A DNA stretch of 64,000 nt, from the NCBI GenBank assembly GCA_000004985.1, contig GG738852.1; one strand, given 5' to 3'. This DNA is from Naegleria gruberi. Its lineage: Eukaryota. The notes beneath the pieces are model-generated. The model did no database searches. It worked only from the letters and a program-made list of their open reading frames with translations, and had not been told where the DNA came from. Each line of letters begins with the position of its first letter. The first letter of the stretch is position 1. Position numbers and translations under genes: made by a program. Positions 34,703 through 64,000 of the stretch are shown piece by piece.

Positions 34703-34703
34703 A

Positions 34704-40015: not shown

Positions 40016-41002
40016 TTAAAATATCTTGACATTGGAAAAAGAAAATGCTTCAGTGAAATTGTGTGCCTTTCTTGCAGCGAGTGCAATACCATCATATGGC
40101 AATGAAGACTTGATTTGAATGGATGTTATGGTGTTAGGTTTTGTTGGTTGAGCTTCTAGAAAATCCAGTTTAGGCATCAATAAGAATTCCTCTTTAGGTT
40201 CAGTATATATCTTTGTTAACAATTGTCCAACAGAGGATCCAAGCTTATCACCATTAATTGGGTTAGCACTTCTCACTACTCCTTTTGGTTGGATAACACC
40301 ATATACATAAATATGAATATCTTCATTTCCAGTAATTTCCTGAACCTGAACTGAGCATTCAATCTTTGAAAATTCAATTGGATGCTTGAAATATATAATA
40401 ATAGGCTCCAAATTCTCTATACTGTATTGGAAATTATTAGAAATTGATTGTTGTGCGAATCTTGTAACTTGGTATCCGAATCCGGTTGTGTTAACACTTG
40501 ATTGATTAAGATTAGGATATTTCTTATTAGTTCTTTTCAATGATACCAATTCTCTTTGTCTATTTGTAAGTTGGTCCCAATTAGAGACATACTTTTCAGA
40601 CAACTTGTTTAAATCTCTATCTGTGTACCATAGTCTCTCCTTCAGCTCTGTAATTTCCTTCATCATAATTTCAAACATGGTGTTTAACTTATCACTATTG
40701 TCTTTCTCTTCTTTAACAAGATTAAATACCATATATTGATCATCAGAACCAGATTCACCAACCTTTATGGTGATCGATTCTCCAACTGCTGTGGAACATG
40801 TGATTTTATTCATCATCAAACATGTCTTGTAATATTTGAAATGAATCAATGTTGAATTTTCCTCTCTAAATAAATATTGATGATAATTGAAGGTACATGA
40901 CATGGTAATCGCTTGTTCACTCTCCAAGAAGGAAAGAAGCAATTCAATTCTTTTACCAAATCTATCATCACACTCAAAATTAAAGCTTTGTTGATTTACC
41001 AT
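40016..41002 (-). CDS. Hypothetical protein (328 aa)
   Basis: Real ATG and coding-like composition. No recognisable domain. Confidence 0.4.
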   Translation of the reverse strand: MVNQQSFNFECDDRFGKRIELLLSFLESEQAITMSCTFNYHQYLFREENSTLIHFKYYKTCLMMNKITCSTAVGESITIKVGESGSDDQYMVFNLVKEEKDNSDKLNTMFEIMMKEITELKERLWYTDRDLNKLSEKYVSNWDQLTNRQRELVSLKRTNKKYPNLNQSSVNTTGFGYQVTRFAQQSISNNFQYSIENLEPIIIYFKHPIEFSKIECSVQVQEITGNEDIHIYVYGVIQPKGVVRSANPINGDKLGSSVGQLLTKIYTEPKEEFLLMPKLDFLEAQPTKPNTITSIQIKSSLPYDGIALAARKAHNFTEAFSFSNVKIF

Positions 41003-41319
41003 TGTTTTTTTGGTTTGTTTGTTGACCTTTCCAATTGTTTCTTCAATAGCTATTTATGTTGAAATGATGTTGGTGAGCCAAAAATAATATTTCTTTCGAA
41101 ATACCTTCCAAGATGAAGCATAACGTCTTAATACCAACGTTTCGAAGAGCATAATTTACAACTTTTCATATAAGGTTATTGAGCTTTATAGGATTACGTC
41201 TATTCGAGTGCAAATAATTATCGAAGAATTTTTCCAAAGTTTGAATTTTCCTCTCTTCCACCTGACATCTTTATTCCGTAATTAAAAGGAGTTTCAGGAG
41301 TTTTCAAACCAAAAAAAAA

Positions 41320-43495: not shown

Positions 43496-43676
43496 TTTGA
43501 CAGATCTATGAATGTTTAAGTTTCCAATAAACTATTGGAAAATGTTTTACTGTAAAATTTAGCATTTAAAGATTAAATCTCTCTTTAATCCAAGTACTCT
43601 CTAAAAAAGGAACCAGAATTATGAAAGAAACTGAAAGTGATGGGAAGAAACTAAAGACGAAACCAAACTAAAAAAA

Positions 43677-45785
43677 ATGTTCTCCTCCAACAAGGCTCTC
43701 GAAGGTGAAATCAGTGATTCACCCCGTAGACATTCTCTCAATATTACGAGTTCTCTGACGGTCAACCCTCCAAAGGCAGCACAATCACTCAATTCAGAGC
43801 AAATGAAAGAGATGAAAAAAGAGAAACGAATTCCTTCGATTCTTCCGAGTAAATTGATGAAATTCAAGACGAAATCATCCGATACATCATGTAGGTTCAC
43901 TATTTACCTCCCTTTCGAATAGTTCGAAAAATTTCGAATATATTTTATTTCGAATAACAGTTGATAAACAAGAATTGAAACAATTATTGGAACAATTTAC
44001 CGCAATCGATGCCAATCAAAAAAAGAATGGACAAATCAGTTTACATGAATTTCTCGTTTGTCTCGGAAGATTAAACGGAAATGAAGATTGCATACTTGAC
44101 AATTGTCAGGCAGATGTCGTTCTAGGAAAGATTTTATTCAGAGCTTTCGATAAAGATAACAGTGGTTCAATTGATTATCGTGAATTCTTAGCAACAATGG
44201 CAATTCTTTCAAAAGGAACAATTGAACAAAAATTGGAATTTGCATTTTCAATGATTGATTTGGATAATGATAAGAAATTGAGTAGAGAGGAATTGCAGAA
44301 AGTTATCGTAGCTCTCTATAAGGTTTTACAATCTTTGGGGTTGAATAGTATGCCAGATCCAATTGTTTATGCCAACAAATTGTTTGATGATATGGATGAG
44401 GATAAATGTGGATATTTGACTTTGGAGGCGTATAAGAAGGGGGCTACGAGGAATTCTAATGTTTTTCTTGGAATGGGATTGTTGGAAAATTCGGATAATG
44501 AAACTATAGGTAGGTTTGAGATTCAAATTTTTGAAATCAATGTGAAATAGAATTTGATGAAAATGGAATCAAGTTACTGAATGAAACTGATTTGAAAAAT
44601 AGAAGTAGCAATGATCCTTCCAAGGCACCTGGTAAAATTATTGGATTTGGAAGTAAAAAGTGGAATTTATGTTTAAATATGATGATTGGCATTCGTCTCT
44701 CCTCTGATTGCATTGGTTCAATTGATCAGAGAGATGTTAGAATGGAAGATTTCAGTGTGAGACTCATGTTTAATTTACCAAAAGATTCCAATAGAAATAT
44801 GACTAATCCAGAGCTATCTGAAATTGATGAGGAGGAAGATGTTGGAGCTACATTTATTGATTATGCACCTTTCGTATTCAAACACATTAGAAAAATGACT
44901 GGAATCAGTGAGGATAGTTACATGATGAGTTTGGGACCTGAACAATTATTGGGAGGTCTCTTATTGGGAAGTTTGTCAACTCTTTCGTGTTCCATATCAG
45001 ATGGTAAATCAGGTTCATTCTTCTTTTATAGTAGTGATCGTAAATTTATGGTCAAGACAATTTCAAAGTCTGAAGTGGCATGTTTGAAAAGAATCTTACC
45101 ATTCTATTACAATCACATGATTTCGAATCCAGATTCTTTAATTGTCAGAATTTTGGGTTTCCATGAAATGGTAATTGACAATGAAAAGTTTAACTTTATT
45201 GTAATGGGAAGTATTTTCCCACAATCAAGATCGATTGACGAACTCTATGATTTGAAAGGATCAACTCATGGAAGAAAGAATCCAAATGGATTTTGTAAGA
45301 AGGATCTCGACTTGATTGAGAAGGAAAGAAAATTCAAAATTGGAAATGAAAACAAACTATTGTACATGAAAATCATTGAGAAGGATGTTGAATTTCTCTC
45401 AAAATGTAATTTATTGGACTATTCACTATTGGTTGGAGTTTGCAATGCTTCGAGAAATATCAAACAAGATCAAGAAGTTGGAATTAATGTAAACTTGGTC
45501 GAAAGTTCTCCAAGAAAGAATAGTGGAAGTCTTGCTGGTTCCAGATTTTCCAGAAGAAACAAGTGTGTCTGTGGAATTCCAAGTATTGATATTGCAAGAG
45601 AATTGCAAGACGATGGAGAAGTGTACTATATTGGAATAATCGATATCTTGACAGAATATAATAGAAAGAAGGAAGCTGAACACACTTTGAAGAGTATCAC
45701 AAACAAATCGGATACTATTAGTGCCATTCCTGCAAAGCCGTATTCTGAAAGATTTTTCAAATTCATGCATCAATGTTTCGAATAA
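43677..45785 (+). CDS. NCS/recoverin-like 4x EF-hand domain fused to a phosphatidylinositol-4-phosphate 5-kinase (PIPK) catalytic domain. Exons 43677..43890, 43961..44509, 44551..45785
   Basis: EF loops DANQKKNGQISLHEF, DKDNSGSIDYREF, DLDNDKKLSREEL, DMDEDKCGYLTLEAY. PIPK core: GKSGSFFFYSSDRKFMVKTIS, ILPFYYNHM, LIVRILGFH, DLKGST, LLDYSLLVG, GIIDILTEY. The 41-nt intron (GTAGGT..TAG) joins the EF-hand exon to the kinase exon in frame. The kinase exon has no ATG of its own. Confidence 0.75.
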
Positions 45786-45822
45786 TAAATGATATGAAAA
45801 TTTTGTACAAAATTTGGTGATT

Positions 45823-47364
45823 TTAATCTTGATTAATTCTAGTTCTGTGTGGTATTGTAATTCTGTAACCTTTTTGTAACTCCCCTATTTCTTTACCTGT
45901 TCCTCCAGTTACCATTGCATCATCGTCAAAGAAGAAAAAGCTAGTCTTGGAAAGTGCCTTGTACTTTTGGTTTTCAGGTTCCTTAATCGATTTGGCATCA
46001 AATACCATATCATAAATGTGTAAAAAGTCATAATCCTCCCTTCCTGTATCACTAACCCAAAAGTTTTCAATCTCTGTCGATCTTTCCAAGCTGTACTTTT
46101 TAGCAAATCCTCCAATAATTGATAAATGTGAAATAGTAATACCAAAAATATCTAATTGAGCTCTAGATTTAAATTCAATAGCTTCGTTATTTACAATAAA
46201 CTCAACCTCTTCCTTGGAAACTTGAAGTGAGGTAGCAACTTCTTCAATCCAGTTTGGATTATTCACAAACACATCAGCTGTTTCCTTAATAATTGACTTG
46301 ACTGCCTTGGAATAAAAGTATTTCAGTCTATATTGGCCTCGCTTCAACTCTTCAAAATATCCATACTTATTAGAAATGACACTATCTAAATTCAATCTCG
46401 ACAATACAGCCGAAACAAAATGTTGACTATTACAATTGGATTCGTCATAGTAATGTTTGCCGTTATATTTACAGCAAACTCTAGCAATATTAATAAGAGC
46501 CATTGAGACTTTCTTAGTTCCTTCAATCTTGGAGATGGGAACCAATTTTAATTTTCTTCTATTTGTATGTGTTCTGATATTACTGACAACATGCCTAGAT
46601 GAAGACCAAAAGAGGACGGCAGTACCCACTTGAAGAGCTAGAGGTAAAATGCCTTCTCTTTCCTCTCCCATGGTATTGAAATCTTCCAAAAAGATGAGTC
46701 CAATATTTAAACTGCTCATAGCAGCGGATTCTTTTGTAAGCTCATTCATTGATAGGAATACATCCAATACGAATCTGTCTGGAAGAATCAAGTTTTGTAT
46801 TTCTGCATTCGTCAAGTGTTCATTTCCTGTAAAATTACGTTTAGTTTGTTTAAACAGGGTAACATTCTCACGTTCCTCACTCGTAAGCACATCATCATCC
46901 CAGACACTTTCCAGAACTTCTATCGATTTCTCCAAGTTGATTCCATGAATGGCATATGATTGTTGAGTTGGTGATAAATCCTTTCCAGCATTACGCAAGT
47001 TAGAAAATGACGATGATGGATAGAGTAAATGATGGTTTTGACTGGTCATGTTAGGTAGAGAATTTACAGCAACAATTGGTTGTGCACTTGTTTCAATATT
47101 TGGTGGCAAATCCAAGTTTCGTTGAATTACATCAGGTGATGAGATGGATGCTTTTGTACTACTCGCAGTAATGGAACTATTGATGAAATTTTGTGTGGTT
47201 GATGTAGATCCTCCCTTCTTACATTTCTCAATGTATTTTAATAAATCATCCATGGTTGGCTCGTCGAAATGTTCCAAACCTTCCTGACGAGCCTCCATTC
47301 TATTCGAAACCATCTCAGACCTACTCACTGCAGATTCCGAATAACAAGGAAAAGGCTGACCCAT
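45823..47364 (-). CDS. Hypothetical protein, possibly with a PPPDE/DeSI-like permuted-papain domain
   Basis: The His..NCNSQHFVSAVL arrangement is reminiscent of the PPPDE H/C dyad. Weak. The ORF track start is TTG; the first ATG gives MGQPFPCY. Confidence 0.35.
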   Translation of the reverse strand: MGQPFPCYSESAVSRSEMVSNRMEARQEGLEHFDEPTMDDLLKYIEKCKKGGSTSTTQNFINSSITASSTKASISSPDVIQRNLDLPPNIETSAQPIVAVNSLPNMTSQNHHLLYPSSSFSNLRNAGKDLSPTQQSYAIHGINLEKSIEVLESVWDDDVLTSEERENVTLFKQTKRNFTGNEHLTNAEIQNLILPDRFVLDVFLSMNELTKESAAMSSLNIGLIFLEDFNTMGEEREGILPLALQVGTAVLFWSSSRHVVSNIRTHTNRRKLKLVPISKIEGTKKVSMALINIARVCCKYNGKHYYDESNCNSQHFVSAVLSRLNLDSVISNKYGYFEELKRGQYRLKYFYSKAVKSIIKETADVFVNNPNWIEEVATSLQVSKEEVEFIVNNEAIEFKSRAQLDIFGITISHLSIIGGFAKKYSLERSTEIENFWVSDTGREDYDFLHIYDMVFDAKSIKEPENQKYKALSKTSFFFFDDDAMVTGGTGKEIGELQKGYRITIPHRTRINQD

Positions 47365-48416
47365 TTTCTCTTTCAAAGCCTAGTTGACTCAATATGTACA
47401 CTATAGAAGCAACACGAGCCTCTACTTTAATATTATTATTATATAAATTGATTTACTACTAGTAAGTAATTTTGGTAATCTCCTCTCAGAACAAAAACAG
47501 GCTAATTTTTCTCTCCTCCTTCGTTTCTGCTCTTTTCTCGCTTGTTGCTTGTTGTATTTTTGTTGTTTTTTTTTTGGTTTTTTCTCCCCCAAAAACAACC
47601 GCAGACTTGCCGTTATCAGCACCTAATATCAATTATCAAAGCCTGAAAATAAAAATAACAGCAACGAGAGACAAGATTATCGATATTGTTATTATTAGCA
47701 TTGCATCATCACCATGAGCAGAAGAATTTCTGCAACATCATATTATTCATACAACTGAATGATGGCATTTCGTATCTTTAACCAACAGGTCACTCCAAAA
47801 TGTTCATCAAAATGCACAATTAGCAAGTGAAAGGTGAAAGATGTTTCGAATAAGGAGTGAGTGATGAAGAATGCATAGTAATTGGTAATAGAGAACATAC
47901 ATTGTGGTGAGAGATGGGTATTTTTCAAAGTTTGAGTGTCTAAATATGAAATGTTGTAAACTATTGTTAGATGAGTGAAGAAAAGAATGATTCGTAAACG
48001 AAGGGATTGTAGATTAAACAAGATGGAGAAGGATTAATATTGGGATAGAGTTTGAATAAATGATGACTGTTCTCATTAACTGGTAAAAGAAGGAGAAGAA
48101 AGTTTATTAGAATGTAGAAGGAGGGTCACAGGATTTCGAATATTATTGGAATAGTGTATTCGAACTGTTCGCCATTTATCTAGATGCGAAAACTGTTCAT
48201 TGGAATGGAGAAATGCTAGAATGTTTCCAAGTGATTCTTTCCAATATTGATTATTTCGTTTCGAATGGAAAGGTTTCTCTTTAATGACTAATAGTACACT
48301 AACATATTCTCTACAGCACATTTATTTGCCTGATTGAACAAGTTTGTTAAGCATTTCCAAATAAATGTTTGTTAAAACTGTTGTACTGGATAACGATTAA
48401 AATTCAAAAAAAGAAA

Positions 48417-48656
48417 ATGTCTAATTTGGAAGCATTTACAGTTTCACAACCTCAACAAGTGAATGAAGATCATAGTGCATTAGTAAGGACACTGATTGAT
48501 GAAAGTAATCAATTGCCAGTTAAAACACTTGTAGAAATTTACGAACATAACATTATTGGATCAATAACCACTTCCACACAACCAATCATGAATCATAAAA
48601 TTGTAAATAAGGAAGAGGAGGAGGCAGAGATTTTCATCCGACAAGTGTACTATTAA
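48417..48656 (+). CDS. Small hypothetical ORF (79 aa)
   Basis: Within ORF 48369..48656, ATG at 48417 (MSNLEAFTVSQPQQ). It sits at the edge of the 1-kb ORF-free region. It may not be a real gene. Confidence 0.2.
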   Translation: MSNLEAFTVSQPQQVNEDHSALVRTLIDESNQLPVKTLVEIYEHNIIGSITTSTQPIMNHKIVNKEEEEAEIFIRQVYY

Positions 48657-48696
48657 TAAAGTGATACTTATTATGATGATGCTTTTATTCCTACAT

Positions 48697-51600
48697 TTAA
48701 GGGAACATGATGAGTGGCATTGAGTATTCCTTTTCATTTCTGAGAATGGATAAACATTGAGTGAGGAATTTTGTGAGTTTGAGTTCAGGAGCAGGTTCTG
48801 GTGATGATCCAGTGCTTGAAGTATTGCTGGTGAGAGGTTGCATTGGAAGAGAGGTTGTTTCACTCCAATAACATTCATACATTACCATGAGGAATTCCAC
48901 AAATTTTCTATAGCAACCATCTGGAACAAAGGTCATCATGCTTGATGGGAGAGATTGAGTGATTTGAAGATGAAGTGAAGTGGCATCTAATAGGTCAGTC
49001 CAAGGGAAGAGGAATACAGGATACTGATCATCTTCTATGGATGATTCGACTGATTTGATAACTCGTGGAATGTCAGAGAGCACTTTGGATAATTTCAAAA
49101 ACTCAATATGTTCGTACTTTTTCTTGTATGATTTGCTTGATGGTTTCTTTCCGTATTTTACAATTGGAATGTGGAATGGCATGTTGATTTTAACATCATC
49201 ATTTTCTCTAGTTTCACATGTTGGTACTAGATGGAGCTTTTCACACATGACATTACTCCAAATCCAGTACTTTCTCTCATCCTCTGCTGATTGAATAAAT
49301 TTAGGATCGTCACTAGAGTAAAAGCAAAAGAATTTTGGTCTTGTCTTGTTTTTTGGAACGAAACCAGATTCCACTCGCTTCTTACTTCTCGTTAATATAT
49401 CCCTAATTGACATGCATCTTACTGCATTCTCCTCAAATATTAATTCCCAAGGAATTGCTTGCAGAGAGGTTGGAGCAATGAGAGTGATAGGTGTCGAAGG
49501 AGTTGGAATCATTTCTGGTTTTGGCATTGGAACACTCTTCTTTTTTGTAAAAGTACTCGTTTTTTGATTCATACTGGAGCAATAGTTAAACTTGTCAAAT
49601 CCATTCCTTTTCATATATTCAGCATTTTCCAAAAATTGGACAGGATCAGGTTTGTACGAAAGAATGTCGTTGATTGAGGAGAAGTGGTCTTTCAACATGG
49701 CAATGTTGGACTTGTTCATGATCTTTTCCTTCTTATCTCTCATACTCTCTGTGATTATTGCCTTGATAAATTCAGACATGCTAACATCTTCTGTTTTTTC
49801 CATGCTATGAATGGTCTTGTAAAAGATATTGGTAGATACGGAACCAAGGAGTCTACTGAAGGAAGCATTAGGATCAAAAGTATCATTTACCTTTGCTACA
49901 TCATGCTCAGTATTCAGGAAAAGTTTACCTCCAAATGATACAAACTTTTTCTGCAACAAGTTAGGAATGTAAAAACTAATGACATTATCAAAATGTGAGA
50001 GGAGAACAATTCTTTCAAAGCATTTGGTTTTCTTCAATTTCTTAAAAGCACGTTTAAGAGGAGTGAGACATGGGGCTAGGGAAGCTTGCTTTTGTACATT
50101 GGCATTGTGGGTATTAGCGTCTATTACTTGCAAATTCATAGTATTCTTCAATGTTCCTGAAATAAGCACACCTTTAGACTCATTGAATGTTGACAGCAGT
50201 GACTCTACTACAGATTTATCACCTGGAAGTAATGTCAAATTGGATGAATCTAATAACTCTATGGAATTAATAGTCTTTGTACTGTCATTTGAAAGTTTGG
50301 AGCTCTTGTTGTAGAATGATCTCTTTTTGTGAGTTGAGAGTTTGCTTTCTCTAACAGCATTCATCAAGTTATACAATCTTCTCATGGATTGTTGATTCTT
50401 AAATCTCAATTGACCATCAATTTCTCCTGGATATTTTCTTCTATCAAACTTCATACTCAACAAGCAATAGAATAATCTTTCACAAACTCTGTGCTTGAGA
50501 TGTGTTCTGTGAGAGTCTTCTTTTGGTTCGATTTTATAGGTGGCATCCAGTGAGGACTTTAGAGTTGGTGATCTCAACATGGATGAAAAGGAAAATCCCT
50601 TGAGGGGCAATGTTAATGTTGATGGAGTGTTCACTTTGTTAAGACCTTCATACGGCTTGTTTTTATCCAATAATTCTGGATCAATGAAACAGGAAATTCT
50701 AGTGACCTTGGCATCATTTTGTTCAATGGAGAGACAGGTAGGTTCTTGAGTTCTCTTCAATGACATTTCATATTCCATTGATAATATGTAGAATGTATCA
50801 AAAACTCCAATATTGGTATTAATGAAGGTAGTTTCAAAGAGTAGCAATAATCTAACACAACGTTTCAAGAGTAGTAGAATTTTTTCTAGCATTGCAGGGG
50901 TAGCTCCACTCGAAACAACAACCTGAGAACTATTGTCAACAAAGAGAGTAAAGAAAATGTCTCGCATTTCACACCAATACTTTTTAGAACTGTGTGTTCT
51001 TCCTTGGAGATATCTGCATTCGGCTGCAGTTAAATTCACATCCATACACATAAATACATCAGATGCAGTTACAGCAACATCAAGTGTTGGTTCAATATAA
51101 TCATTAAATACTTCTTCAAGGTCAATGTATGTCATTTTTGAATCATTGGAACATAGATCAAGATAATCTTCTGGCTTTTTAGACATGACAGTAACTGGAG
51201 TAAACATATAGTCAACCAAGACTTGGGCGATCAAAATGTCCATCTTGGCTAAGCTAATCTCATTCGAACAGGCTTCATAATATTTCTTTGCTTTTTGGAA
51301 GCAATCTACAGAGTCAGAAATAATTATAGCCAAAGAATCATAAACAGGTCTCTTGGAATAGAGATATTTTTCCTTTGGTGCATCTCTGAGAACTTCTGAT
51401 TTTTGAATCAGTGTCAAAATTGAAAGCCTATCTTTCTCTGATGGTATCAATTCATTTGGGAAAGATATTGGATGACTCCATTTGGCAACACTCATCAATA
51501 TTTTTCCTTTCAGTTTGAAGAGTTGAGCCAGTGTTGAAAATGTTCTATTGCACCTATAGAGAGCAATGTTGATTGTCTCAATGGAGTTTCCAAACATTGA

Positions 51601-54600
51601 CCTCTTCATATAGTACTTGGTTATAATTTCTAGTAACCTCATTTCTTGTTGTTGCTGAAGTTGCATAAAGTTATTCTCCATAATCATTTCCAATTCTTTT
51701 AAAACCCTTTCACATTCCTTGAACCATTTCTTTTTTAAATAGGCCTCAGCCAGAGTAATGTAGAGATCTGGATTTTTGATAGAGAGTGAAGATTGAATGA
51801 GGCCAAGGCAAATATTGACACATCTTTCTAAATTTCCACCATTTAAGAGTAATTTAGCATAATCAATTTCAAGTTCCATCTTGAAATCAAATGATGATGA
51901 GAGGGATTTGATCGTTTCCAGAGCATCTCTTTTAACTCTCTCAGCATTTCTGAATTCACCTTTTTCCATAAATAAGGCAGATAATTTTGAGGAAATATTT
52001 GCAATTACTGCCACACGTTTGTCACGGCAAGCTTTTTCATTCAGGATGGTATAATATCTGATGGATCTACTCCAATCATCACTCTTAACGGCAAGGGCTG
52101 CCAACTCATCAATAAACTTGTAGTCATGATCTGAGGAGAGAAGTCTATAGTTTTGAGTGTACATCTCGTAAATAATTGATGCATACTGTGGCTTTCTGTT
52201 TGAATAGAGGGCGTCTCCAAATTTTCTCATTGCTTTAAGTGCTTCTGCACTTACAATTGTTGGAATTCCCACACAAAGAGGAGGACATTTTTGGAATAGA
52301 TAAACACTTTCAAAAAGTGCACACTCTCCAAGTCTGGTCATGTCAGAATCACCCTGTTTGGCCCAAAAAGATCCCAACGAATAAGCTACATAGGCTTTGT
52401 TCTTTGAGATACCCATTCTACTGTAAAATTTGCTGAACATGACAGCAATTCTCTCGTGAGAACTTAATAGTGGATGTCTGAATTGAGGTATCCATGTCTC
52501 AGAGCCAGCATGTTTTCTCAATGTAGAATCATACAATTCTAATAATGTTACAATTAGTGCTCCACAGTCACACAAGCTTGGGAAGCTAAAATAGGGGGAA
52601 TTGAATGTGGTACCCATGGTTGAGGAGCCAACAAAAATAGGTGCATCCCTAATCTTTTGATCAACTACAGAGTAGAAGAGTGCATTATTTTCCATTCCTT
52701 CCTCTGGTATGTCAAAGACTTCATTGAAAATCATGGCCAAAGTGGTAAAAACTTCGCTAATACTGTCAAAATCAGGGAACATGCCAGTTTCTAATTGGAA
52801 TATGTGGTACTTGATTTGAATTTCACATTGGAGAACAATAATGCTTGCTCTCTGAGTTGGATAAGCATTGAACAGCAGGGAAATCATTTCAGTATATTGA
52901 GCACTCTGTTTTGGATCTTCCAAATTGAATAATCTTGTAGAATTTGCACTTTTCAATAAATCTACACAAATGTGAAAGAGGTATGCTCTCTCATTTAGAG
53001 CGAGTTTGTTAACAACTTCAGGTGTCATATTTTCGAAAAATTTAACCAGAATACTCTGAGTAGTAATTTGCTCCTTTGCAATATGAATCAGTCTGTAACA
53101 AATTTCATAGAAATTCTCAATAAACTCCATTGAAAAGTCATAGCTTTGCACTCTCTTCTCCAACCTCGAGAGGAGAAAATTTGTTAAATCATCTCTAGAG
53201 CAAGAGTCAATCACATTCTGATCTTTGACTTTTTTAGGTATTAGAGATTGAAACCACAGCAACAATTCACGTTTTCCTTCATGGAATGATTTTCCACCAA
53301 TCAATCCTTTAGTTAAAACAACTTCTGGTAGCATTAGCTCTTCCTTGTAAGTCCTCGATTTAAAGAGTCTATACTTGTTAGGGAAGAATTCTTCTTCGAA
53401 AAGATCATTTTCTTCATCTTTAGATTCCCTGTCGTCTGTTTTATCTCCAAATAAAATCCCAGCCAATGAAGATTTTGGAGCAGAATTAAAATCAATTTCA
53501 TCTCCCCAATCACTCTCACTATCACTTTCATCACTATCCTCTTGCCACTTGGATTTCTTTGGAAGATCGGTATTGGTTTTTTCTTTTTGCTCGATTTCTT
53601 TCAGAACCTTGTCCATCTTTCCATAAATTTCAAGTTCCAATTCACTAAAGTTTTCACTACATGCATCTTCAGGCATGTCAATTTCCTCCATAGATGAAAA
53701 AATCAATGTACTTCCCTTTCCAAGTCTGTTGACCAAATGTAAAACTCGTTTTGCCAATTCCATTTCAGAAAGAGCTCGCAAACAAATACCCATATAATAT
53801 ACAATCAAGAGAAAAACTTCGAGATTTAACACAGAGACAAAACCTGTCGAAGTGTACGACGTCAAATCACGAAGAGCAGGCACAAGAAATGATGCCAATA
53901 CCTTGTACAAGTATTTCTTTTCACTAATTGTCATTTCGAGACTATTAAAAGTAGGTTTGATAATCTCACTCATATCTTGTGAATTGATCATTTCCTCTGC
54001 CAAACACAGTAAAATTTCTGAATGTAAAATCCGTGTGGACAGTACAATAAATGATGGTGAATTTGAGCAAATAAAATCAGATGGAGCAACAGATTGCAGA
54101 AGAGCATCAGTTTTCTCCTGTGCACTTTCCAGATATTCATTTGCATCGTCAACTTTTTTCTTTTGTTTGAGGATAATGGATTTGAGGAATAGACATTTCG
54201 AGTGTAGCAGTTCAATTTTTGGTACAAATTTACCATATTGATTATTGGTGGCCAACTCCTCAACCCTAGACAGTTGGGCAAAAGATTCGGCAAACTGTTT
54301 GTGTTCTCTGTGAATTTGAGCAATTTCCAATCGTTTTGTCATTTCATTAGCAAGAAGTGTTTCATACTCTTCTGTTGTTGCACATGTTGGATCCCTATCA
54401 TCGTCCTTATAGTATTTTCCAATTAAATTATCCAATTGTTCGTTCAAAACTCTGACATCTCGGAAGAGTGACCACTTTTGATCTAAAACAATTGTATTGG
54501 CATCACCGTAACCATTATGTAAATCCAAAATCCTCTCTGTTTCAGCTCCCTCCTCAATAACACTATTCAAATCATGATCCGACTCTGTTTTAGAATTACT

Positions 54601-55148
54601 CTTATTGGTGATAATGTAGGTGATATTCTGTTGGGGATTTAAACTCACAAATGATACATTGGGTGAGAAGTTTGAATTCAATCCGGCATAGGTTGTTGTA
54701 GTAATTGTTGAGGCATCAGAGAGAAATCTATTGTGATACTTGTGTTGATGTTCCTTCAGGGACCGATGTTTGGTTTGTGTTGCTGTTGTATTGTTATTAT
54801 TATTATTGGATGATGAGGTAATATTGATTTTAGAGTCATCACTAACGGATAATGAAATTGATTTAGTTACACTCAACATTTGCTTCTTCCGATCTTCCTC
54901 TGATTGTATCCAAAATTGAGGAAGTTTAGATTGGTTCTTGAAGAATGTTGCTTGGATGGGAAGGATGGGTCGTAAATCGTTACATTTTTCAGCTAATGAT
55001 ATTAAAGATGATGATGAACACAAATGTTTCTCCTTTTCTACTGCTTACCTGCTATTACGAAAGATTCGATAAATTGAATTTCTAGAGCCAGTTGCTCGTT
55101 GAGTTGGTCGAATGATGTGACCGTACTGGCTGATTGTGTTCTTTGCAT
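48697..55148 (-). CDS. Giant TPR/helical-repeat protein (~2140 aa) with a 5' mini-exon. Exons 55148..55049, 54992..48697
   Basis: The 6-frame ORF begins with TTG. Upstream exon MQRTQSASTVTSFDQLNEQLALEIQFIESFVIA ends in a phase-1 GTAAGC donor. A 56-nt intron (54993..55048) joins it in frame to ..AEKCNDLRPIL. TPR-like blocks around 51.0–52.5 kb. No catalytic signature found. Confidence 0.6.
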
Positions 55149-55344
55149 GTTTTTTTTAATGATGATGGCTGACGGAATGATCTGTTGAGTTTTGTTTCAG
55201 TGATAATGAATGAATATTAAAATGGTTGCTCGTACGTTTCATTAGGTTTTTTATTCTTCTTGGTTTATCTTTGCAATATTTGAACATGTTGAAGTTTGAC
55301 ATTTAAGGATATCTCTCACTACTAAGGTTCCTTCTCGAAAATTT

Positions 55345-57110
55345 CTAGTACTCAGGACGTGAAGATATTCTAATCGTTAAATCTGAGAAATGATTAAAGA
55401 TAGCTCTGGAAAAGCCCTTTCTTTTACCAGGTAATATAAACATGGAACGAATGGTTCCTTTGCTATACATCATACTCGTTGTGTCATCGTAAATAGTTCT
55501 GTACAAGAGGTGAGAGAGGTGGGAAACATACTTCTTGATAACAGACTCTGGTTCATTTTGTCTGTGAGCAAAATCCAACCTCATATCACAAATTAGTAAG
55601 GCATTTTCAATATTAATCGGAACATCCACTCCAATAAAACCTTCAATTAATGGAACATATTGACATGATCTGGCAAAGAGGAAATAATCACACTTCCTTT
55701 CCAATAGTTGAGGAACACCAGTATTCCAAGCTCTACATATTTGAATGTAGGGACTGACAACTTTATCCTCTCCTTGTGCCAAAGTATGATATTCCAATTT
55801 GTAGTAAATTTCTGTTAGTATATCTTCTATCAGTTTCGCCTTGTCTGTTAATCTTTTATGTTCTCGATACTTTTCTGTAATAATACTATATGCTTCATCA
55901 CTTGTTATTTTTTCAATCATTTTCTTTACAACGTCTCTCTTAGCTTCATAGGCATAATATATTGAAAGAATATCGTAATAAGGTTGGGAGTGTGTGATAA
56001 CACTTGTTAAATCATCAAGAGCAAGATCCAATCTTCCAAAATGCCTATAGATAGCTTCTCTTTGTAGGTATGTATTTGCGTCACTGAAAACAACTCCTGA
56101 CATAGATTTGTACTTTCTTGTCATTATTATTGATATTGTAAAAAATTTGAGTGCCTTTCTCAAGAGTTTTTCCTTTTCTTCCTCACTAGTATTTTCATCG
56201 TTAGCAATGTGGTAACATGATTGTCCAATCATTGATGGAATTTTAACCTTGTAATAAGGATTGAGTATAATTTTTCCCCTTTCAATTTTTCTCTTTTTTC
56301 CACTTGATTGTTTAGATGATCTGAATTCTGGAGGAAGTTCAGATTTATAATCACATTCTCTATTAGATGTCATTTTCCAAATAGCCATCAATTCCTCCAA
56401 GGCTTTAGGAAATTGGGAATTATAATAATGATGGTAACCAATAGAATAATGTGGTTCAACTTCTGAATAGTAAAAGTATAATCTCTGATCATCACTACCA
56501 ATATTTAACTTTTCCAACCTTTGTTGTACCTGTTTGTCAAAGTAATCCTTCTGGGTTTTTGCTGAATTTAATAAAGTTTCTGCAGGTGCAAAATTAGCAT
56601 TTACAATATGTTTCCAAGCTTGGAATAAAGTAATTATCCAATTCGGATATTCCAAAATATCAGGACTCTTATGTGATGCTTTTTGAATTGATAAAATCAT
56701 TAAACTCTTATCCAAATCACTCTGTGCTAATTTTCTCAATTCCTTGTGGAAGTAACTAACTTGATACCACTTTGAAAAGATGAATTCCGATATCGGAAGT
56801 AGAAATAAATTAAATCTGAATCTATTCGTCCAATTTTACATACCCAAGGTATCCATTTTGCTCTCTGAAATTGTGGTTGATAATTTGTACTATTTTCATT
56901 GATACATTGATTTAAAATTCCTAAACTCTTATTAATAAAATTGTCTCTTCTTAAAAACTGTTGCTCGCACAACAAGGATTCCATCTGAATATTACCAGTT
57001 GAGAAGGTATTTTCCGTTAGGAAGGGACACTTCTCCAGTAATTTGTCTAGCGTATCAACTTCATCACTTTTTGTTGTTTCACCACCGAAGAACACTTGTC
57101 TTAAAAACAT
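55345..57110 (-). CDS. Hypothetical protein (~560 aa). Exons 57110..56844, 56769..55345
   Basis: Two ORFs in different frames are joined by a 74-nt intron (GTATGT donor, CAAAG acceptor, phase 0). This gives ..AKWIPW|WYQVSYFHKELRKLAQSD... Real ATG (MFLRQVFFGG). Confidence 0.5.
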
Positions 57111-57184
57111 TTTTTTATGTTGTGTTGGTATTCAAGAAGGAAGAGTTAATTTGGACAATTAATTGAGATTAATAATATCAAAAA

Positions 57185-59281
57185 ATGAATCACTCACCAT
57201 TCTATCAACATCATGTTCATCATCCATACCCTCCGAGTCACCAACAACAAGTACACCAACAACAACAGCAGGATCATCATTATCTTCCTCCATCAATGAG
57301 CCATCATCATATGACTCCACCACCAACATCAAATATGTATCATCAACACCACTCCTATCCTTCCAGTCATTTATATGCTGTAAATTCAAATTATCAAAAT
57401 TCAGGCTTTGGTTATCAACCCCATTTACATTCCTACTCTTCTGCTGTGCCATCACCATATCCACCACCTGTTAGTGAGCCACATTATTATGATATCCATC
57501 CTCCTCATAGTACTAGTGGGTCATCTGGTTATATGCCACCTTCTCAGGCTTCATCAAGAATGGAAGACAAGCCTTATGATTACTATCCTCCACCTCCACC
57601 AAGGTATTCAACAGGAAAAGAATATGGAAGAGTAAATAACAACAAGCCTAATAATCCAAATACCAATACCAATCACAATAACAACAAGAGGTTACATGCT
57701 AACAACCAGCACACTGAACAACACAACAAGCCTTCGGAAAAAATTGGGACAACAAACACAACAAATAATTCAATAACTAGAAAACCCCAATTTGAAAATA
57801 AGAGAAAAATTACAGTGGATATGCAGCCCAACAAGAAACAAAAACAAGCTGTTCCAACATCAAAAATTTCAACAGAAAAAACTAACGAAAAAATTGTAAA
57901 TAATAGTAATAGTAATAATAAGAATGAGGATAAATCGAGTGATGAAAAATTGGATATTTATAGAGTATTACGAGTTTGTGCAGAGAATAGTTCTGCTGAT
58001 TTGACAGAAAATGAAATTTTCAAATATTTTCCTAATGCTTTAAAGGTAAGAATGGAAAATCAAAGAGATTTTCTTGTTGAATTTTCTTCATTGGTCGACA
58101 TGATACCATATATTGAGTCGGAGACTTTGCAGGAAGAAGAGACTGTAAATATTTCCATACCAAAAAGTTTGATACCACCAGAGTATGCAAACAATACCCA
58201 AAAGTTAGTTCTTGAATTTATAGATTTCCTCAAACAAAAGCAACCTCAATCATCATCTAATGGTTCTGCTTTTGACCCTTCTAATTGGAATAAGCTGATA
58301 TCCTCAATCAAAATACCTCAAAATGTTTCTCCTTACGAGTTGTTGGAATTTAGAGAACGAAGAGTTAAGAAAGTTCTTGGTAAGAAGGAGTTTGGAATTC
58401 TCATTCATGATAAGCCTAAAATAACAGATAAGATAGGCTTTCCACTTTTTTCAAATCCTAATATGACAGATAATAGGGGCAATGAAAGGTTCTTCTTTTT
58501 TGCATTTTGCAAAACTGGTACAACATTCTTGGGCAAGGAAGAAATTTCCAAATGTTTTCCAAATGCCAAGGCCATACATTTTGATCCTGGTGATCATAGA
58601 ATAATTGTCGAGTTGAATAATCAAAATGACTTTAATGCCTACAAGAAGATTAGCCATTCTGGAAAACTACTTGTTCGAAATCATTCCTTCCTACTGAGAA
58701 AGGCCAATCCTAAAGACATTCCCCCAGATATTCTCAACCCACCACTCCAACAAAGTACAGATATTCCAACAGTTACTCAACCAAGTTCTGAAGAATCAAA
58801 GAATGCCTCAACTCCAGACAAGAATCTACTCTTACAGCAATTACGTCAACAAATGGATCATCCATCAGAAACGCCCAAGCAAGATCCAAAAGAATTGAGA
58901 AATGCCTTACTTGCCCAAATGAAAACACAACCATCAAGCGTTGAATCTTTGGAGAGTTTTATCAGCCTTTCTGATCCAGAAAGTGAATCATCAAGTGAAG
59001 AGGATGAAATGATTGAGGAAACAGAGGAAGACGTGAGGTCTTACTCGTCTTCTGAATCAAATAATGAGGAAGCTCCATCATCTCCCCAACATCCAACAAC
59101 ACCCAACAAGACTCAATTACTATCAGCACTTAGAGAACAAATGCAACAATCAGCTGAAAAGAAGAAAGAACCAACTCCAAGCACAACCTCAGTCTCTGCA
59201 TCAAGCTCCAATATTCTTGGTATAAAGAGAAAGACTTTTGCCAGTCACTATGCTCTATTTCACCCTAAATTTAACAAATAA
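57185..59281 (+). CDS. Low-complexity H/P/Q/N-rich protein with two degenerate RRM-like folds and an acidic S/E tail
   Basis: 698-aa ORF with a real ATG. N-terminal ~200 aa are rich in His-Pro-Tyr-Gln-Asn. Possible RRM-like segments IYRVLRVCAEN..VRMEN and FFFFAFCKTGTTFLGKEEI..IVELNNQNDF. Confidence 0.45.
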   Translation: MNHSPFYQHHVHHPYPPSHQQQVHQQQQQDHHYLPPSMSHHHMTPPPTSNMYHQHHSYPSSHLYAVNSNYQNSGFGYQPHLHSYSSAVPSPYPPPVSEPHYYDIHPPHSTSGSSGYMPPSQASSRMEDKPYDYYPPPPPRYSTGKEYGRVNNNKPNNPNTNTNHNNNKRLHANNQHTEQHNKPSEKIGTTNTTNNSITRKPQFENKRKITVDMQPNKKQKQAVPTSKISTEKTNEKIVNNSNSNNKNEDKSSDEKLDIYRVLRVCAENSSADLTENEIFKYFPNALKVRMENQRDFLVEFSSLVDMIPYIESETLQEEETVNISIPKSLIPPEYANNTQKLVLEFIDFLKQKQPQSSSNGSAFDPSNWNKLISSIKIPQNVSPYELLEFRERRVKKVLGKKEFGILIHDKPKITDKIGFPLFSNPNMTDNRGNERFFFFAFCKTGTTFLGKEEISKCFPNAKAIHFDPGDHRIIVELNNQNDFNAYKKISHSGKLLVRNHSFLLRKANPKDIPPDILNPPLQQSTDIPTVTQPSSEESKNASTPDKNLLLQQLRQQMDHPSETPKQDPKELRNALLAQMKTQPSSVESLESFISLSDPESESSSEEDEMIEETEEDVRSYSSSESNNEEAPSSPQHPTTPNKTQLLSALREQMQQSAEKKKEPTPSTTSVSASSSNILGIKRKTFASHYALFHPKFNK

Positions 59282-59302
59282 AAAAAGATCTAGTATCCAC
59301 AC

Positions 59303-62300
59303 ATGTTTTGTAATCTGTTCAATTCCAAAACTGAAAAAAACAATGCAACAAGATCACATCACATCAACTCCACTCTAAATGACGACTATCTGTTCGAGTT
59401 GGATGATGACGATTCCACTCAGGACAATGGTGAATCAGCCACTTTAAATTCAATGCAACATTATAAACAATTCGACATTCATCCTCTCCTCTTACATAAT
59501 ATCATTCATCAAATTTTGGAATATTCCGATAATCCAACCAACATCCTACTTGTTAATAGAAGTTGGTACATTTATTTCCATCATGTTTATGTTTTGCAAA
59601 AAACAGCAAATCAGTCATTAATCTTGGATCGGATTGCAAAATCAATATACAACAAGGATGTACAAAAGTTTACAAATTATCTTCATACCATGGTACAGTG
59701 CCACGATTATTTAATGAAGGGAATTGTTCATTTGCAAATTCAATCAGAACCAACACCACCATTGGAAAATAATAATACAATTTTAGAAGAAGATCAAGTA
59801 ATTATGTGTTTATCCAATTCATCAGTTATTACTTGGAAAATTGGTAAATTTAAAATAGGAAAAGAGTTTAAAATTTCCTCACAGAAAAAGAAACAATCAG
59901 AAGGACAAAAATCAAAATCGAATACTTCTGTTTCATTCTCAGAGTTAGGTGAACAAGCAGAAGCTTCACTTTTCACTAGTATACCATCCTTGTCTAATTA
60001 TAATAATGTCATTGTAAGTAAGGTGAAAGCTGGTGAGAAGAGATTCATTGTTGTTGGAGGATCTGATTGTACCATTAGAGTTTTGGATTATGAAACAGGT
60101 GAAGTTAAGGCAAGTTTCTCAAAAGCCAATCGTCAACCTATTCTGGCCTTGAATTTGTTTGGTGATAAGATTTTGAGTGCAAGTGATGGAGTCTATGTAA
60201 TTCAATATCAAGATGTGAAGGAAGAACAAGAAAACGACAATGATGAGGAGGAAAATGCTCTCGAAAATGAATTTGAAGAGGAAAAGAAAAAAACAAAACC
60301 AAAAGTGAAACTCAGTAAGGAAGAGGAAAGAAAAAGGGAAAAGGAATTGAAAAAGCAATATCAGAAAAAGAAAAAGCCAAAAGATAAGAGCAGCAAATCT
60401 GCCTCAGTGACGAAACCAACTCTAACTCTTGTGAAAAATTTCAGGCACAACAATGCTGGTCTGGTAACATCTGTCAATATTCACAAGGGTGGAAAATCAT
60501 CCCTTTTGCTGATTACATCCCATAGTGAAAATAGTGTACGTTTGTGGGATTATGAAAATGAGAATGTGCTATTGGTTATTAGAGGAGACTACTGCTCTCC
60601 AGTATTTTCCTCATTTCTCTCATTTAAGGGATATGGAAAATCGAAAACATTTGATATTTGCTCAATCAATGACAATTTTGAGAATGTTTATGTGTGGAAT
60701 CCAAAAACTCATGATCCTTATCCAACTATTCAATTCCAGAGTAATACTGTCTCAACAGTTGAGGATATTCTATTCAGAAAAAGATCTTCCCACTCTAATT
60801 CATCAAATATTTTAATTCCAGACAGAGATTCAAAGAGTAATCACTTCTTTTTAATGTCCATCTTCCAATTTAATTATTCCATACCATTCCAAATTGAAAA
60901 TAATAACATATCTAGTTTGGGAAGAAGAAGTTCTGAAATTGGACTTTATGAACAATATGTTACTTTAGAACCTATTCACAAAAAGGAAATTCCACCATTA
61001 GCTGAATTGAAGAAAAACATAATGAATAGCCCAAGCAGCTATCTATTAGATGAAGTTTCATTGTAAGTTTTTTTGCATTTACATTTTCTTAAATATGGTG
61101 ATGAACTAGTTTATTGGAGAAGATTGGTTGGACCTCTTCGAAGGAAATTATTTCAGACCTTAAGGATAAAATTGATAAAGCCCAAGAAGAACCTCATGTA
61201 GTCTGCAAAATATTCGAACTCATCTTGTGGTATGCATGTAGAGTTGGAAATTCTCATTTGACATTGGTGTTCTCTGAGATAATACACTCAGTACTGTCAC
61301 AAATGAAACCTGGCAAAGGAAAAGATCAATCCTTTGAAATACTCCATACCTATGACGAAATCATTGACCGAGAGGATACCAAAACAAAGTATTTGCAACA
61401 GAAAAAGCTATCCTACACTTATCTAATGTGCACTCTTATGCGTCTTAACATGCATTACTTTTGGGATACTTTCAACAAAACATCTAAAAATTTTATTTCC
61501 AACTTGTCAGAGCAAGATCCAACTGCTCTCACTCGTTTGTTCCTTTACCTAAAGTTTTCTTCTGAAGGAATAATGGTAATTACCGATATATTAACAATGG
61601 TTGATAAGATGAAAGAATTCCTCCACAATTTAAGGGGAAATGTTTCCATTTATCACTCTTACATGGTAGATGATTTAATCTCCGTTTTGGATCGTCAACA
61701 GAAAACTAAAGCGATAGTCCCTTCTATTGATAGAGATTTCTTCAAAACTCTCCATCATATGGTTGTAACATTTCGTTCCAACTTTACCAAGAAGTTCATT
61801 ATGGATAATATTTACAACTCGAAGGAGCAAAACATCTTGGTGGAGAAGGATGTAGTTCCTTATTTATTTGGAGTTGGAAAGAAGAATATCATGAAAATTC
61901 AACAACAAAGTGGTGCAACAATTTACATTTCAGGAAGGGATAAAGACAAACATTTCGAACCAAGAAAGAAAGAAGATTCAATCCACAATAATAAGAATGA
62001 TAAGAAGAAAGGTGACCATAAGAATAACAATAAGAGTGAGAAACCAAAATATCCAAAAGAAAAGAAAAAGGTACAATATGATTTCTCTAAATTCTCCAAT
62101 GTAAATATTAAGGGTGATATCAAACAGGTTGATTTGGCCATTGCTCTTATAGATATGGTTATTAACAACTTTTTTGATAAGAACAAGTTGAATAGAAGAA
62201 ATCCACCAATTACCAAACTTGTTATCGACCATGATACTATAGATGTAGCGAATCAGTACTTTCAATTTGTACCATATTCTCGTCTTCCTCTGAGCATCAA

Positions 62301-63477
62301 ATTTATTAATGTGAAAAGATCCTCACTGAGAATTATTCCATCGAGTATTGTTGAATCCTTCAGCAATGTAACCAATGTTCCAAAAGTTCATAATTCTTCC
62401 AAGTTGGACAATGTAACTTTTGGTTGTTTGAACACATTCGAAAGAAGTATTTATTTTACCAATGAGAAGGAGGTATCATTCTTTACTAAAAAGTCATACT
62501 CGAAAGAGTTGATGGATTGCCTTTTGAAACCAGTGAAGCAGGTGAATGAATTTAAGGAGGAAAGCGGACTTACCTTGAGATTAAGTCTTGGAAAACTCTT
62601 TTTCTATCAGCTTCCAAACTATATCGAAAGTAACAGCAACTTTATTCAATTCTCAGATTTGGTTAATATTTTAAATAGGGAAATTGAATCCACCTCTCAA
62701 GAGGTTAGAGACATAATTTCTGGAGAAACCAGTAATTATCCATCTATCAAGAATGATTTCAAATTCTCATTTGATGATAATCTCAGTAAGCAACACCAAG
62801 CAACAATAACCTCAAAATTATCACCAACCGTATCTCAATTGCACAAAGTACTATCTATAGAGATGATCGACAAACAATCCAATCAATTCATCCAATTGAA
62901 TATGGCATTGTTGGATAGTGGTGTAAAACTCAAGTCAGTGAGAATAGTCAACTCTCCAATCATGAATATGTTCCATTTGAATTTGAAGGAAAACAATGGT
63001 ACCAAACAAGAATGTGACTATCTATTGAGCGCTTCAAGAAGTTCACAATTAACAGACATTGAACAATATCCAAACCTTTTCAATTTTGTTTCCTTATTAG
63101 AATTCCAATCATCAAAATGGAACCTCTCTCAAATTATTGAATTTACCAAGGATCAATTCAGTTCAAATGAAGGAGATCTCTACAATTCATTCTATATTTC
63201 CAACATGGCTGTGAAACACAAATTTATTTACAAAATTAATTTCACACCAATGGAAGATGGAATTTCTTCATTTGAAATCTCTCCAATCAACAACAACAAC
63301 AATACTGAACCACTCCTCGTCAATCTCACATTCCTTCAATACCACTGCTCTCAACACTCAACTGTAACAAGATATCAATGGAAATTGAATATAAAGAGAC
63401 AGATTCCAGCAGAGAGAGATGTTTCAGACATGGATATTATTTCACTTTTAGATTTTGTAAACATACTCACTGAGTAA
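59303..63477 (+). CDS. F-box-like / WD-repeat-like N-terminal region plus a KH domain protein. Exons 59303..61062, 61110..63477
   Basis: A 47-nt intron (GTAAGT..CTAG) joins the two ORFs in frame (..LLDEVS|F|LLEKIGW..). The second ORF has no ATG of its own. WD-like strands TIRVLDYETGE and SVRLWDYENEN. KH motif ILVEKDVVPYLFGVGKKNIMKIQQQSGATIYISGRD. A K/E-rich basic stretch looks like a nucleolar-type signal. Confidence 0.55.
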
Positions 63478-63582
63478 ATAATTAAATTGAGATTTCAATT
63501 TTAATTTAATTGAAAAATGTTCAAAGATCTTGAACACCAAATTTGAACCGCCAAAATTCAATTTTTTTTTGTTTTTAAAAAA

Positions 63583-64000
63583 ATGGCTCCAAACACAAAG
63601 AAGGTCAAACTCTCCAAGGAAGAAGAAAATCAATCTGCTGCTTTTGAAAAGATTGCTCTCCTCCAAGAAGAAGTTTCAAAGCTCGATGAAGAATTAGAAG
63701 CTGAAACTGCTGTTCTCCAAGCTAAATATGATAAGATGAAGAAGCCATTCTTCGATCAAAGAAAGGAACACATTTCTAAACTCACCGAATTCTGGGCTAA
63801 CGTTGTATGTAGAATTATTGTTATTGGATTCTAACCATATTCACATTTATTATTGGTACTATTCCGCAATGTTATTATTATTTTAATCATCATGCATAAT
63901 TGATTATCACAGTTCGCTGCTCATCCACTCCTCTCCAACTTTATTGGTGATAAGGATATGGAAGTCTTGAAGTACATTTCTGATGTTGAAGTTGAATCTG
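63583..64000 (+). CDS. SET/TAF-I (NAP-family histone chaperone), 5' part. Exon 1 63583..63804; exon 2 starts 63913 and runs off the window
   Basis: AVLQAKYDKMKKPFFDQRKEHISKLTEFWANV|FAAHPLLSNFIGDKDMEVLKYISDVEVES matches SET ([54 protein letters not shown]). GTATGT donor and CACAG acceptor are in phase. Confidence 0.75.

Follow-up and report, generated by a model that had tools for sequence, protein, structure and literature searches.

Gene 1 (ORF1) occupies positions 57185..59281 on the plus strand of the window, i.e., the whole 64,000-nt stretch of Naegleria gruberi DNA analysed here. It codes for a 698 aa protein whose N-terminal half is rich in H/P/Q/N and which contains two RRM-like units, at about aa 261-310 and aa 436-506. 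The ORF coordinates, read directly from the sequence, agree with the original prediction. The ATG at 57185 is preceded by atcaaaaa. ORF1 matches the N. gruberi predicted protein EFC47954.1, whose GenBank model begins only at Met126. The RRM-like label attached to ORF1 earlier has no counterpart in Pfam, where no RRM match was found even at E = 10, and draws weak backing from the predicted fold. The low-confidence AlphaFold model (pLDDT 43) contains two beta-alpha-beta-beta-alpha-beta units, and all Foldseek matches of this model were tandem-RRM proteins, with weak E-values.

An exhaustive HMMER search found only two homologues of ORF1. The first belongs to N. lovaniensis; the second lies on a metagenome contig (L003), where an unrelated gene follows it. 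The alignments reach the ends of both homologues, with query residue 698 paired with 966/966 and query residue 696 with 669/670 (P0004, P0005). All three proteins share the motif (K/R)K(T/S)F..HY.L(F/Y)H..F.(K/R)-stop. In gene 1 this conserved C-terminal motif reads KRKTFASHYALFHPKFNK-stop. Since both homologues stop at the same conserved motif, the TAA at 59279-59281 is the true end of ORF1. The gene 1 product is a Naegleria-lineage protein carrying two RRM-like units and terminating at this codon.

The TAA is followed in frame by AAA AAG ATC TAG TAT CCA CAC and then by an ATG at 59303. The 21-nt spacer on the plus strand (AAAAAGATCTAGTATCCACAC, 59282..59302) holds a second in-frame stop, the chance TAG at 59291-59293. 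At the very end of gene 1 (59277..59286, plus strand) the TAA lies within an AATAAA hexamer (59277-59282) and starts an A7 run (59280-59286). The ORF1 orthologue of N. lovaniensis likewise ends in ...CCAAATAAAG. Judging by its sequence, the hexamer may act as the gene 1 poly(A) signal. The A7 run looks like the A-runs located just 5' of start codons in the N. gruberi genome. Two ORFs in one frame, parted by 21 nt with a TAA and a TAG, are seen in the sequence as originally described; this observation is genuine and the original prediction is partly confirmed. The shared frame and the second stop are a coincidence and not more than chance would give. Same-strand neighbours are expected to share a frame one time in three. 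With a per-codon stop probability of 0.0735, as calculated for this base composition, at least one extra in-frame stop within seven codons has P = 0.41.

Read from its first in-frame ATG, gene 2 (ORF2) has two exons on the plus strand. Exon 1 (59303..61062) codes for an acidic N-terminal tail and a WD40-like region, and exon 2 (61110..63477) has a KH domain covering roughly residues 239-277 of the ORF in that exon. They are separated by a 47-nt intron (61063..61109, plus strand, GTAAGT...CTAG), and the N. lovaniensis orthologue has a same-sized break at the same place. The earlier description of 59303..63477 as a single frame-2 ORF was mistaken: the frame-2 ORF ends at 61066, and the reading frame is frame 1 after the intron. 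The spliced product is 1375 aa long. Among the domains assigned to it before, KH scores above the Pfam cut-off, WD40/beta-propeller was matched repeatedly but weakly, and the F-box has no Pfam match even at E = 10. Gene 2 is read here as a two-exon gene for a WD40/KH protein, translated from its own start codon.

ORF2 matches the N. gruberi predicted protein EFC47955.1, an entry separate from EFC47954.1. The EFC47955.1 model has a longer intron, so 45 residues conserved in N. lovaniensis are lost. Its GenBank start is Met130. The comparison with N. lovaniensis defines a conserved block of gene 2 (HPLLLHNIIHQILEYSDNPTNILLVNRSWYIYFHHVY) from about aa 55, and the Met130 start is disfavoured because it would remove this strongly conserved block.

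The N. lovaniensis orthologue of ORF2 is 1430 aa long (98% of the query covered) and has a canonical acaaaaaaaATG start. A divergent Kelch gene lies 1134 nt upstream of it, and the orthologue has its own 1.1-kb upstream region. The ORF1 and ORF2 orthologues are about five genes apart in that genome and have different neighbours; a convergent HSP70-like gene is located 20 nt downstream of the former. Each of the two genes thus has its own orthologues and independent neighbours. The synteny map of the two species contains the same genes in an order reshuffled through local inversions. The adjacency of genes 1 and 2 would stem from such local reshuffling separating N. gruberi from N. lovaniensis, as read from the gene order of these two species. 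No N. fowleri proteins were among the matches in protein searches for further orthologues, and two scans of metagenomes for them found nothing. We conclude with high confidence that the locus consists of two independent, unrelated genes in head-to-tail order, within the gene-dense N. gruberi nuclear genome.

This arrangement leaves hardly any room for the single ~2,090-aa protein considered in the original prediction, which would be made either by reading through both TAA and TAG or from a sequence in which these stops are errors. Nothing speaks for such a protein beyond the shared frame and the 21-nt distance. Fusion, read-through and sequencing error are rejected because the C-terminus of ORF1 is conserved, with its stop at the same position in two homologues, and the N. 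lovaniensis orthologues are separate, non-adjacent loci; the ORF2 orthologue there has 1430 aa and not the ~2,100 of a fused gene. No continuous orthologue and no conservation across the stop were found. UAA followed by A is a strong termination context. Instead of a leaky context with a single stop, a ribosome would meet UAA-A and then, four codons on, the in-frame UAG, and a sequencing explanation would need two independent errors, each making a stop. The locus resembles programmed stop-codon read-through in having two in-frame ORFs parted by a stop. It differs in the presence of two stops, the UAA-A context, the lack of conservation across the junction and a downstream ORF that is an unrelated gene with unlinked orthologues.

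Two other ways of joining the ORFs were considered. Splicing out the stops was rejected: there are 37 in-frame GT..AG candidates, none with a GTAAGT/GTATGT-type donor, and all of them delete the conserved C-terminus. Frameshifting or transcriptional slippage on the A-run was rejected by reasoning. The run comes after the TAA, and a shift on it could not fuse the ORFs because both are already in one frame.

A polycistron or reinitiation had also been offered as an option. Here one bicistronic mRNA would carry both genes, and gene 2 would be expressed by termination-reinitiation 21 nt past the stop or through polycistron processing. A stop-to-start distance of 21 nt is within the working range of termination-reinitiation in some viruses. 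The ATG at 59303 lacks the usual start signature and no ATG in any frame occurs in 59253-59302, both of which would suit reinitiation. However, after an ORF as long as 698 codons reinitiation is as a rule negligible, TGGGA (TURBS motif 1) is absent upstream of the gene 1 stop in 59100-59302, and no Rfam element is present. In the search for structured RNA in 58800-59800 the sole Rfam match was at chance level (E = 0.78; 13 bits, where the cut-off is 100). Polycistron processing has in its favour that Naegleria belongs to Discoba, which includes the polycistronic Euglenozoa. Heterolobosea, however, have a conventional, monocistronic architecture: same-strand runs comprise about two genes, their lengths show no heavy tail, and spacers are equal within and between runs (10.64898/2026.07.29.740908). 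Long same-strand runs with eroded internal spacers were not found, nor was a TURBS-like motif complementary to 18S. The pairing is not conserved either: in N. lovaniensis the two genes are not neighbours, and gene 2 has 1.1 kb of upstream sequence to itself. The likeness to viral TURBS and euglenozoan polycistrons is thus limited to the short same-strand stop-to-start distance, while the motif, the polycistronic architecture and the conservation of adjacency are all missing. We regard a shared mRNA as very improbable.

Within the two-gene arrangement, the start codon of gene 2 can be sought at the ATG at 59303 or, as the original prediction allowed, at a later Met. The next in-frame ATG is indeed Met51 (59453..59455, plus strand), located 6 codons upstream of the conserved block, and its use would widen the spacer to 171 nt. 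Ahead of Met51, 53 codons of the frame are free of stops (base composition gives P = 0.0175 for this; 50 open codons in simulated non-coding sequence have P = 0.035). Across that interval the remaining two frames contain 2 and 6 stops. Five out-of-frame ATGs are located between 59303 and 59453, all within 59343-59427, and upstream of 59303 the 50 nt mentioned above hold none. Because of the open stretch and these five ATGs, translation probably begins at 59303, the start codon suggested by the sequence. A long acidic tail is likewise present at the N-terminus in N. lovaniensis, where 85 residues precede the conserved block. An example of a peptide within residues 1-50 of gene 2, as read from 59303, is SHHINSTLNDDYLFELDDDDSTQDNGESATLNSMQHYK.

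The context of the ATG at 59303 is poor: it has C at -3 and no A6-10 run of the kind that directly precedes most start codons of the window, and the nearest A-run ends 16 nt upstream. In the window, about 14 ORFs from a list chosen by length have an A6-10 run directly before their first ATG, and about 26 of 47 runs of at least 7 A adjoin an ORF-opening ATG. The N-terminal residues themselves carry little signal. Comparison of aa 1-50 with the N. lovaniensis N-terminus gave P = 0.46 for local alignment and P = 0.10 for anchored extension. The dicodon coding score of 59303-59452, calibrated through leave-one-out and simulation, was 0.083 vs 0.071 for simulated open non-coding sequence.

These features speak for a start at Met51, with 59282-59452 as an ordinary 171-nt spacer holding the gene 1 3' UTR, the gene 2 promoter and a short 5' UTR. 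A spacer of 171 nt is typical of the tandem ones in the window, significant conservation with N. lovaniensis starts only at about aa 55, and by coding score 59303-59452 does not stand out from open non-coding sequence. Such a start would be a variant of the two-gene explanation and not a contradiction of it. However, it has to accommodate the 53 open codons, opened by an ATG three codons past the stop (P about 0.02-0.035), and the five out-of-frame ATGs, which would become upstream AUGs unless transcription begins no more than about 25 nt from Met51. One of the five, in AAAAAAACAATG (59334..59378, plus strand), bears a perfect local start-codon signature in frame +1 and opens 11 codons (MQQDHITSTPL-stop). 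This element is either a chance occurrence in Lys/Asn-rich coding sequence or, if Met51 is the real start, an upstream mini-ORF. The ATG at 59453 likewise has no A-run, and it would leave only 6 residues before the conserved block vs 85 in N. lovaniensis. Met51 is therefore possible but somewhat doubtful, and is not favoured over the ATG at 59303.

Comparably short spacers occur elsewhere. Within the window, a Kelch gene stop at 33471 is followed by an ATG at 33511 across a 39-nt tandem spacer (69 nt in N. lovaniensis), and the protein starting at this ATG is conserved from Met1, with synonymous differences. The divergent pair 57110/57185 is separated by 74 nt, and the convergent pair of N. 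lovaniensis by the 20 nt noted above. Spacer lengths in the window are for the most part 100-1,100 nt, and for the other tandem pairs mostly about 105-400 nt. Gene orientations alternate across the window.

The original prediction fairly assumed that a promoter does not fit into 21 nt. As judged from the sequence, the probable solution here is an overlap of promoters and 3' ends with neighbouring genes. If 59303 is used, the gene 2 promoter must overlap the end of ORF1 since the spacer is only 21 nt. The transcription start and core promoter of gene 2 would then be located within the final codons of gene 1 or immediately past them, with the AT-rich stretch AAATTTAACAAATAAAAAAAG, stop codon included, as a candidate promoter element. 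A motif search upstream of 27 starts found no positioned motif usable for placing the promoter, and nothing beyond an overall richness in AT and a depletion of G at -15 to -19. The 3' end of gene 1 would fall at or inside the gene 2 start, producing overlapping transcription units. For both genes, we infer the transcription starts and poly(A) sites.

We tentatively propose, as a possibility to be taken seriously, that gene 2 is translated from 59303 and transcribed from a point in the final ~50 nt of gene 1, perhaps the A-run with the stop codon and AATAAA. A single element of ~12 nt would then have three functions, as the final codons and stop of gene 1, as the gene 1 poly(A) signal and as the gene 2 initiator region, and the gene 1 mRNA would end inside gene 2. 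Literature searches gave nothing usable on Naegleria UTRs, transcription starts and poly(A) signals, and found no paper describing overlapping transcripts in Naegleria. Such a layout would resemble microsporidia, nucleomorphs and Giardia, in which independent genes are tens of bases apart and promoters and 3' ends are forced into or over the neighbouring gene. It differs in the spacers of the window, mostly 100-1,100 nt, and in that the overlap in Naegleria is predicted here from the DNA.

Tight packing of this type is ordinary in Naegleria. For annotation, EFC47954.1 and EFC47955.1 both appear to be 5'-truncated, and the gene 2 model has a wrong intron that costs 45 conserved residues. The A-run start signature combined with comparison to N. 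lovaniensis provides simple rules for mending such gene models. The finding of independent genes 20-40 nt apart suggests frequent overlap of Naegleria promoters and 3' ends with neighbours, which would be unsurprising in a gene-dense protist. Naegleria is free-living and has a ~41-Mb genome. If the proposed overlap at 59303 is true, it would imply, together with the 39-nt tandem and 20-nt convergent pairs, that transcription units overlap routinely in Naegleria. This free-living eukaryote is not normally ranked with the extremely compacted genomes.

ORF1 (gene 1) extends on the plus strand from ATG 57185 to the TAA at 59279-59281 and codes for 698 aa. The TAA is followed by a 21-nt spacer (codons AAA AAG ATC TAG TAT CCA CAC) and by ATG 59303, which opens ORF2 (gene 2) in the frame of ORF1. 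The sequence agrees with the original prediction as to two same-frame ORFs and a spacer region holding TAA and TAG, but not as to a continuous ORF 59303..63477: the frame-2 ORF meets a stop at 61066, and coding resumes in frame 1 behind a 47-nt intron (61063..61109, +, GTAAGT...AG). The spliced product has 1375 aa, and the Naegleria lovaniensis orthologue has a same-sized break at the same point. Neighbouring genes share a frame with a chance of 1/3. At 33% G+C each codon is a stop with probability 0.0735, so at least one extra in-frame stop among the seven spacer codons is expected with P = 0.41. The shared frame and the second stop do not exceed chance, and the common frame is a coincidence.

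ORF1 is 100% identical to N. gruberi EFC47954.1 (573 aa), while the spliced ORF2 product matches the predicted protein EFC47955.1 (1202 aa) and, with 40% identity over 98% of the query, N. lovaniensis C9374_011255 (1430 aa). As the two ORFs match separate N. gruberi entries, the public record already has two genes. The 5′ ends of both GenBank/JGI models look wrong and the proteins truncated. The EFC47954.1 model begins with Met126 of ORF1, although ATG 57185 bears the local start signature (suspect region 57185..57562). EFC47955.1 starts at Met130 of ORF2 (ATG 59690; suspect region 59303..59692), losing a block 42% identical with N. lovaniensis, and its intron is longer than 47 nt (suspect region 61063..61245), at the cost of 45 residues conserved in N. 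lovaniensis.

When 1.84 billion representative proteins were searched exhaustively with HMMER, ORF1 hit, apart from itself, just two homologues: the 966-aa N. lovaniensis protein C9374_011250 and a 670-aa protein encoded on a 4.2-kb ENA metagenome contig. With three members in this search, the family seems confined to Naegleria and close relatives. In its members (57185..59281 and the two homologues) a Pro/His-rich N-terminus is combined with a pair of RRM-like units, recurring 'LL..LR.QM' helices and, at the C-terminus, the conserved motif KKTF..HY.LFH..F.K. The alignment to ORF1 reaches the final residue of both homologues, and the three proteins end with KRKTFASHYALFHPKFNK, RKKTFSYHYSLFHKSFTK and KKKSFRQHYLLYHTDFR, each then followed by a stop. 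Because the motif ends alike in three species, a sequencing error is ruled out, as is read-through as the source of the main product, both of which had been proposed for a single long gene. Judging from these alignments, the ORF1 stop is genuine. In the metagenome contig (2600..2665) the stop TAA of the homologue is embedded in AGGTAAGT, a perfect 5′ splice-site look-alike, and a second copy of TTAGGTAAGT lies 47 nt downstream; this recurrence may reflect a small duplication or an intron at the 3′ end. Despite AGGTAAGT, the protein alignment still stops at the usual C-terminal motif.

Other routes to one product or one transcript were also considered. A single fused gene was rejected, given the conserved ORF1 C-terminus at the stop and the unlinked N. 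lovaniensis orthologues. None of the 37 in-frame GT..AG intervals able to remove both stops has a GTAAGT/GTATGT-type donor, and all 37 would delete the conserved C-terminus, so fusion by splicing was discarded. Frameshifting or slippage on the A-run was dismissed too, the run being 3′ of the TAA and both ORFs in one frame anyway. Rfam returned nothing meaningful for structured RNA. A polycistronic or reinitiation arrangement finds no support: TGGGA is absent from the 200 nt upstream of the ORF1 stop, and in a comparison of 59 Discoba species Heterolobosea have about two genes per same-strand run, long runs form no heavy tail and spacers inside runs are not eroded, as in conventional monocistronic organisation (2026 preprint, 10.64898/2026.07.29.740908). 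ORF1 and ORF2 are two separate genes of a compact protist genome; the observation is real and ordinary.

Most start codons in the window are directly preceded by a run of 6-10 A, for example at 5876-5884, 11285-11293, 41311-41322 and 57108-57116 (-). About 14 first ATGs have it in a list of ORFs picked by length alone, and some 26 of the 47 runs of at least seven A on both strands adjoin an ORF-opening ATG. At positions -15 to -19, G hardly ever occurs. The A-run is a handy rule for locating first exons, but every candidate ATG of gene 2 lacks it. An A7 run (59280-59286) overlaps the ORF1 stop and AATAAA, ending 16 nt upstream of ATG 59303. At 59334-59345 a perfect AAAAAAACAATG also occurs, out of frame and leading into just 11 codons.

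With moderate confidence, we place the gene 2 start at ATG 59303. The 53 codons upstream of Met51 (ATG 59453) stay open (P = 0.0175 from base composition; P = 0.035 for 50 open codons in simulated non-coding sequence), with 2 and 6 stops in the other two frames. Five out-of-frame ATGs lie within 59303-59453 and none in 59253-59302, and N. lovaniensis has a partly acidic tail of 85 residues before the conserved block. The open frame, the five ATGs and this tail argue against a start at Met51, the later Met of the original prediction, which we favour less. Against ATG 59303, the 171-nt spacer of Met51 would be more typical than 21 nt, the context of ATG 59303 is poor, the stretch upstream of Met51 shows no significant resemblance to N. 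lovaniensis (P = 0.46 and 0.10), and its dicodon score resembles that of open non-coding sequence (0.083 vs 0.071).

Of the domains originally proposed, KH in gene 2 is above the Pfam cut-off and WD40/beta-propeller matches are weak and repeated; the conserved block near the N-terminus resembles an F-box by eye only, with no F-box match in Pfam. Gene 1 has no Pfam matches. Its low-confidence model (pLDDT 43) contains two beta-alpha-beta-beta-alpha-beta units, and every protein it matches in Foldseek has tandem RRMs (nucleolin, U2AF65, Prp24, TIA-1, NONO/SFPQ; E = 3e-4 to 0.08), making the RRM-like label plausible but weak.

The comparison with orthologues suggested for detecting a fused or split gene finds them separate in N. 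lovaniensis, on the same contig about five genes apart. The ORF2 orthologue, starting at ttttacaaaaaaaATG, lies 1134 nt from a divergently oriented Kelch gene on its upstream side; in the metagenome contig an unrelated gene lies downstream of the ORF1 homologue. N. lovaniensis ORFs mapped onto the window form a common set (Vta1, Kelch gene, 347-aa gene, 2,100-aa gene, 660-aa gene, NAP, ORF1, ORF2) differing in order and orientation. The junction is thus the product of a local rearrangement in one of the two lineages, the juxtaposition being lineage-specific. Between window positions 636..63825 and the two N. lovaniensis loci, the same ten or so genes lie within ~45-64 kb in both species; such kept content with changed order and orientation points to frequent small inversions.

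Tandem spacers within the window are mostly ~105-400 nt. Nearly as tight as 21 nt is the 39-nt spacer (within 33469..33513) between a tandem Kelch gene stop (33471) and ATG 33511, which directly follows an A9 run. Of the first 33 residues of the encoded protein, 32 are identical in the N. lovaniensis orthologue, with Met1 kept and synonymous differences; the spacer counterpart there is 69 nt (locus L001 5200..5270, -). The divergent pair 57110/57185 has 74 nt in common, separating the ORF1 start from that of the 55345..57110 (-) gene on the opposite strand. The latter comprises two ORFs, 55345..56739 and 56736..57110, with a 4-nt same-strand overlap and no match in Pfam or the two N. lovaniensis loci; these probably form a single gene interrupted by a small intron or a change of frame. 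In N. lovaniensis (locus L002 12948..12973) a convergent HSP70-like gene is annotated 20 nt past the ORF1-orthologue stop, so 3′ UTRs there must be tiny or antisense-overlapping. The gene 2 promoter may lie inside the end of gene 1. With tandem, divergent and convergent spacers of 39, 74 and 20 nt, promoters and 3′ ends of this lineage must often lie over adjoining genes, with putative overlap of transcripts.
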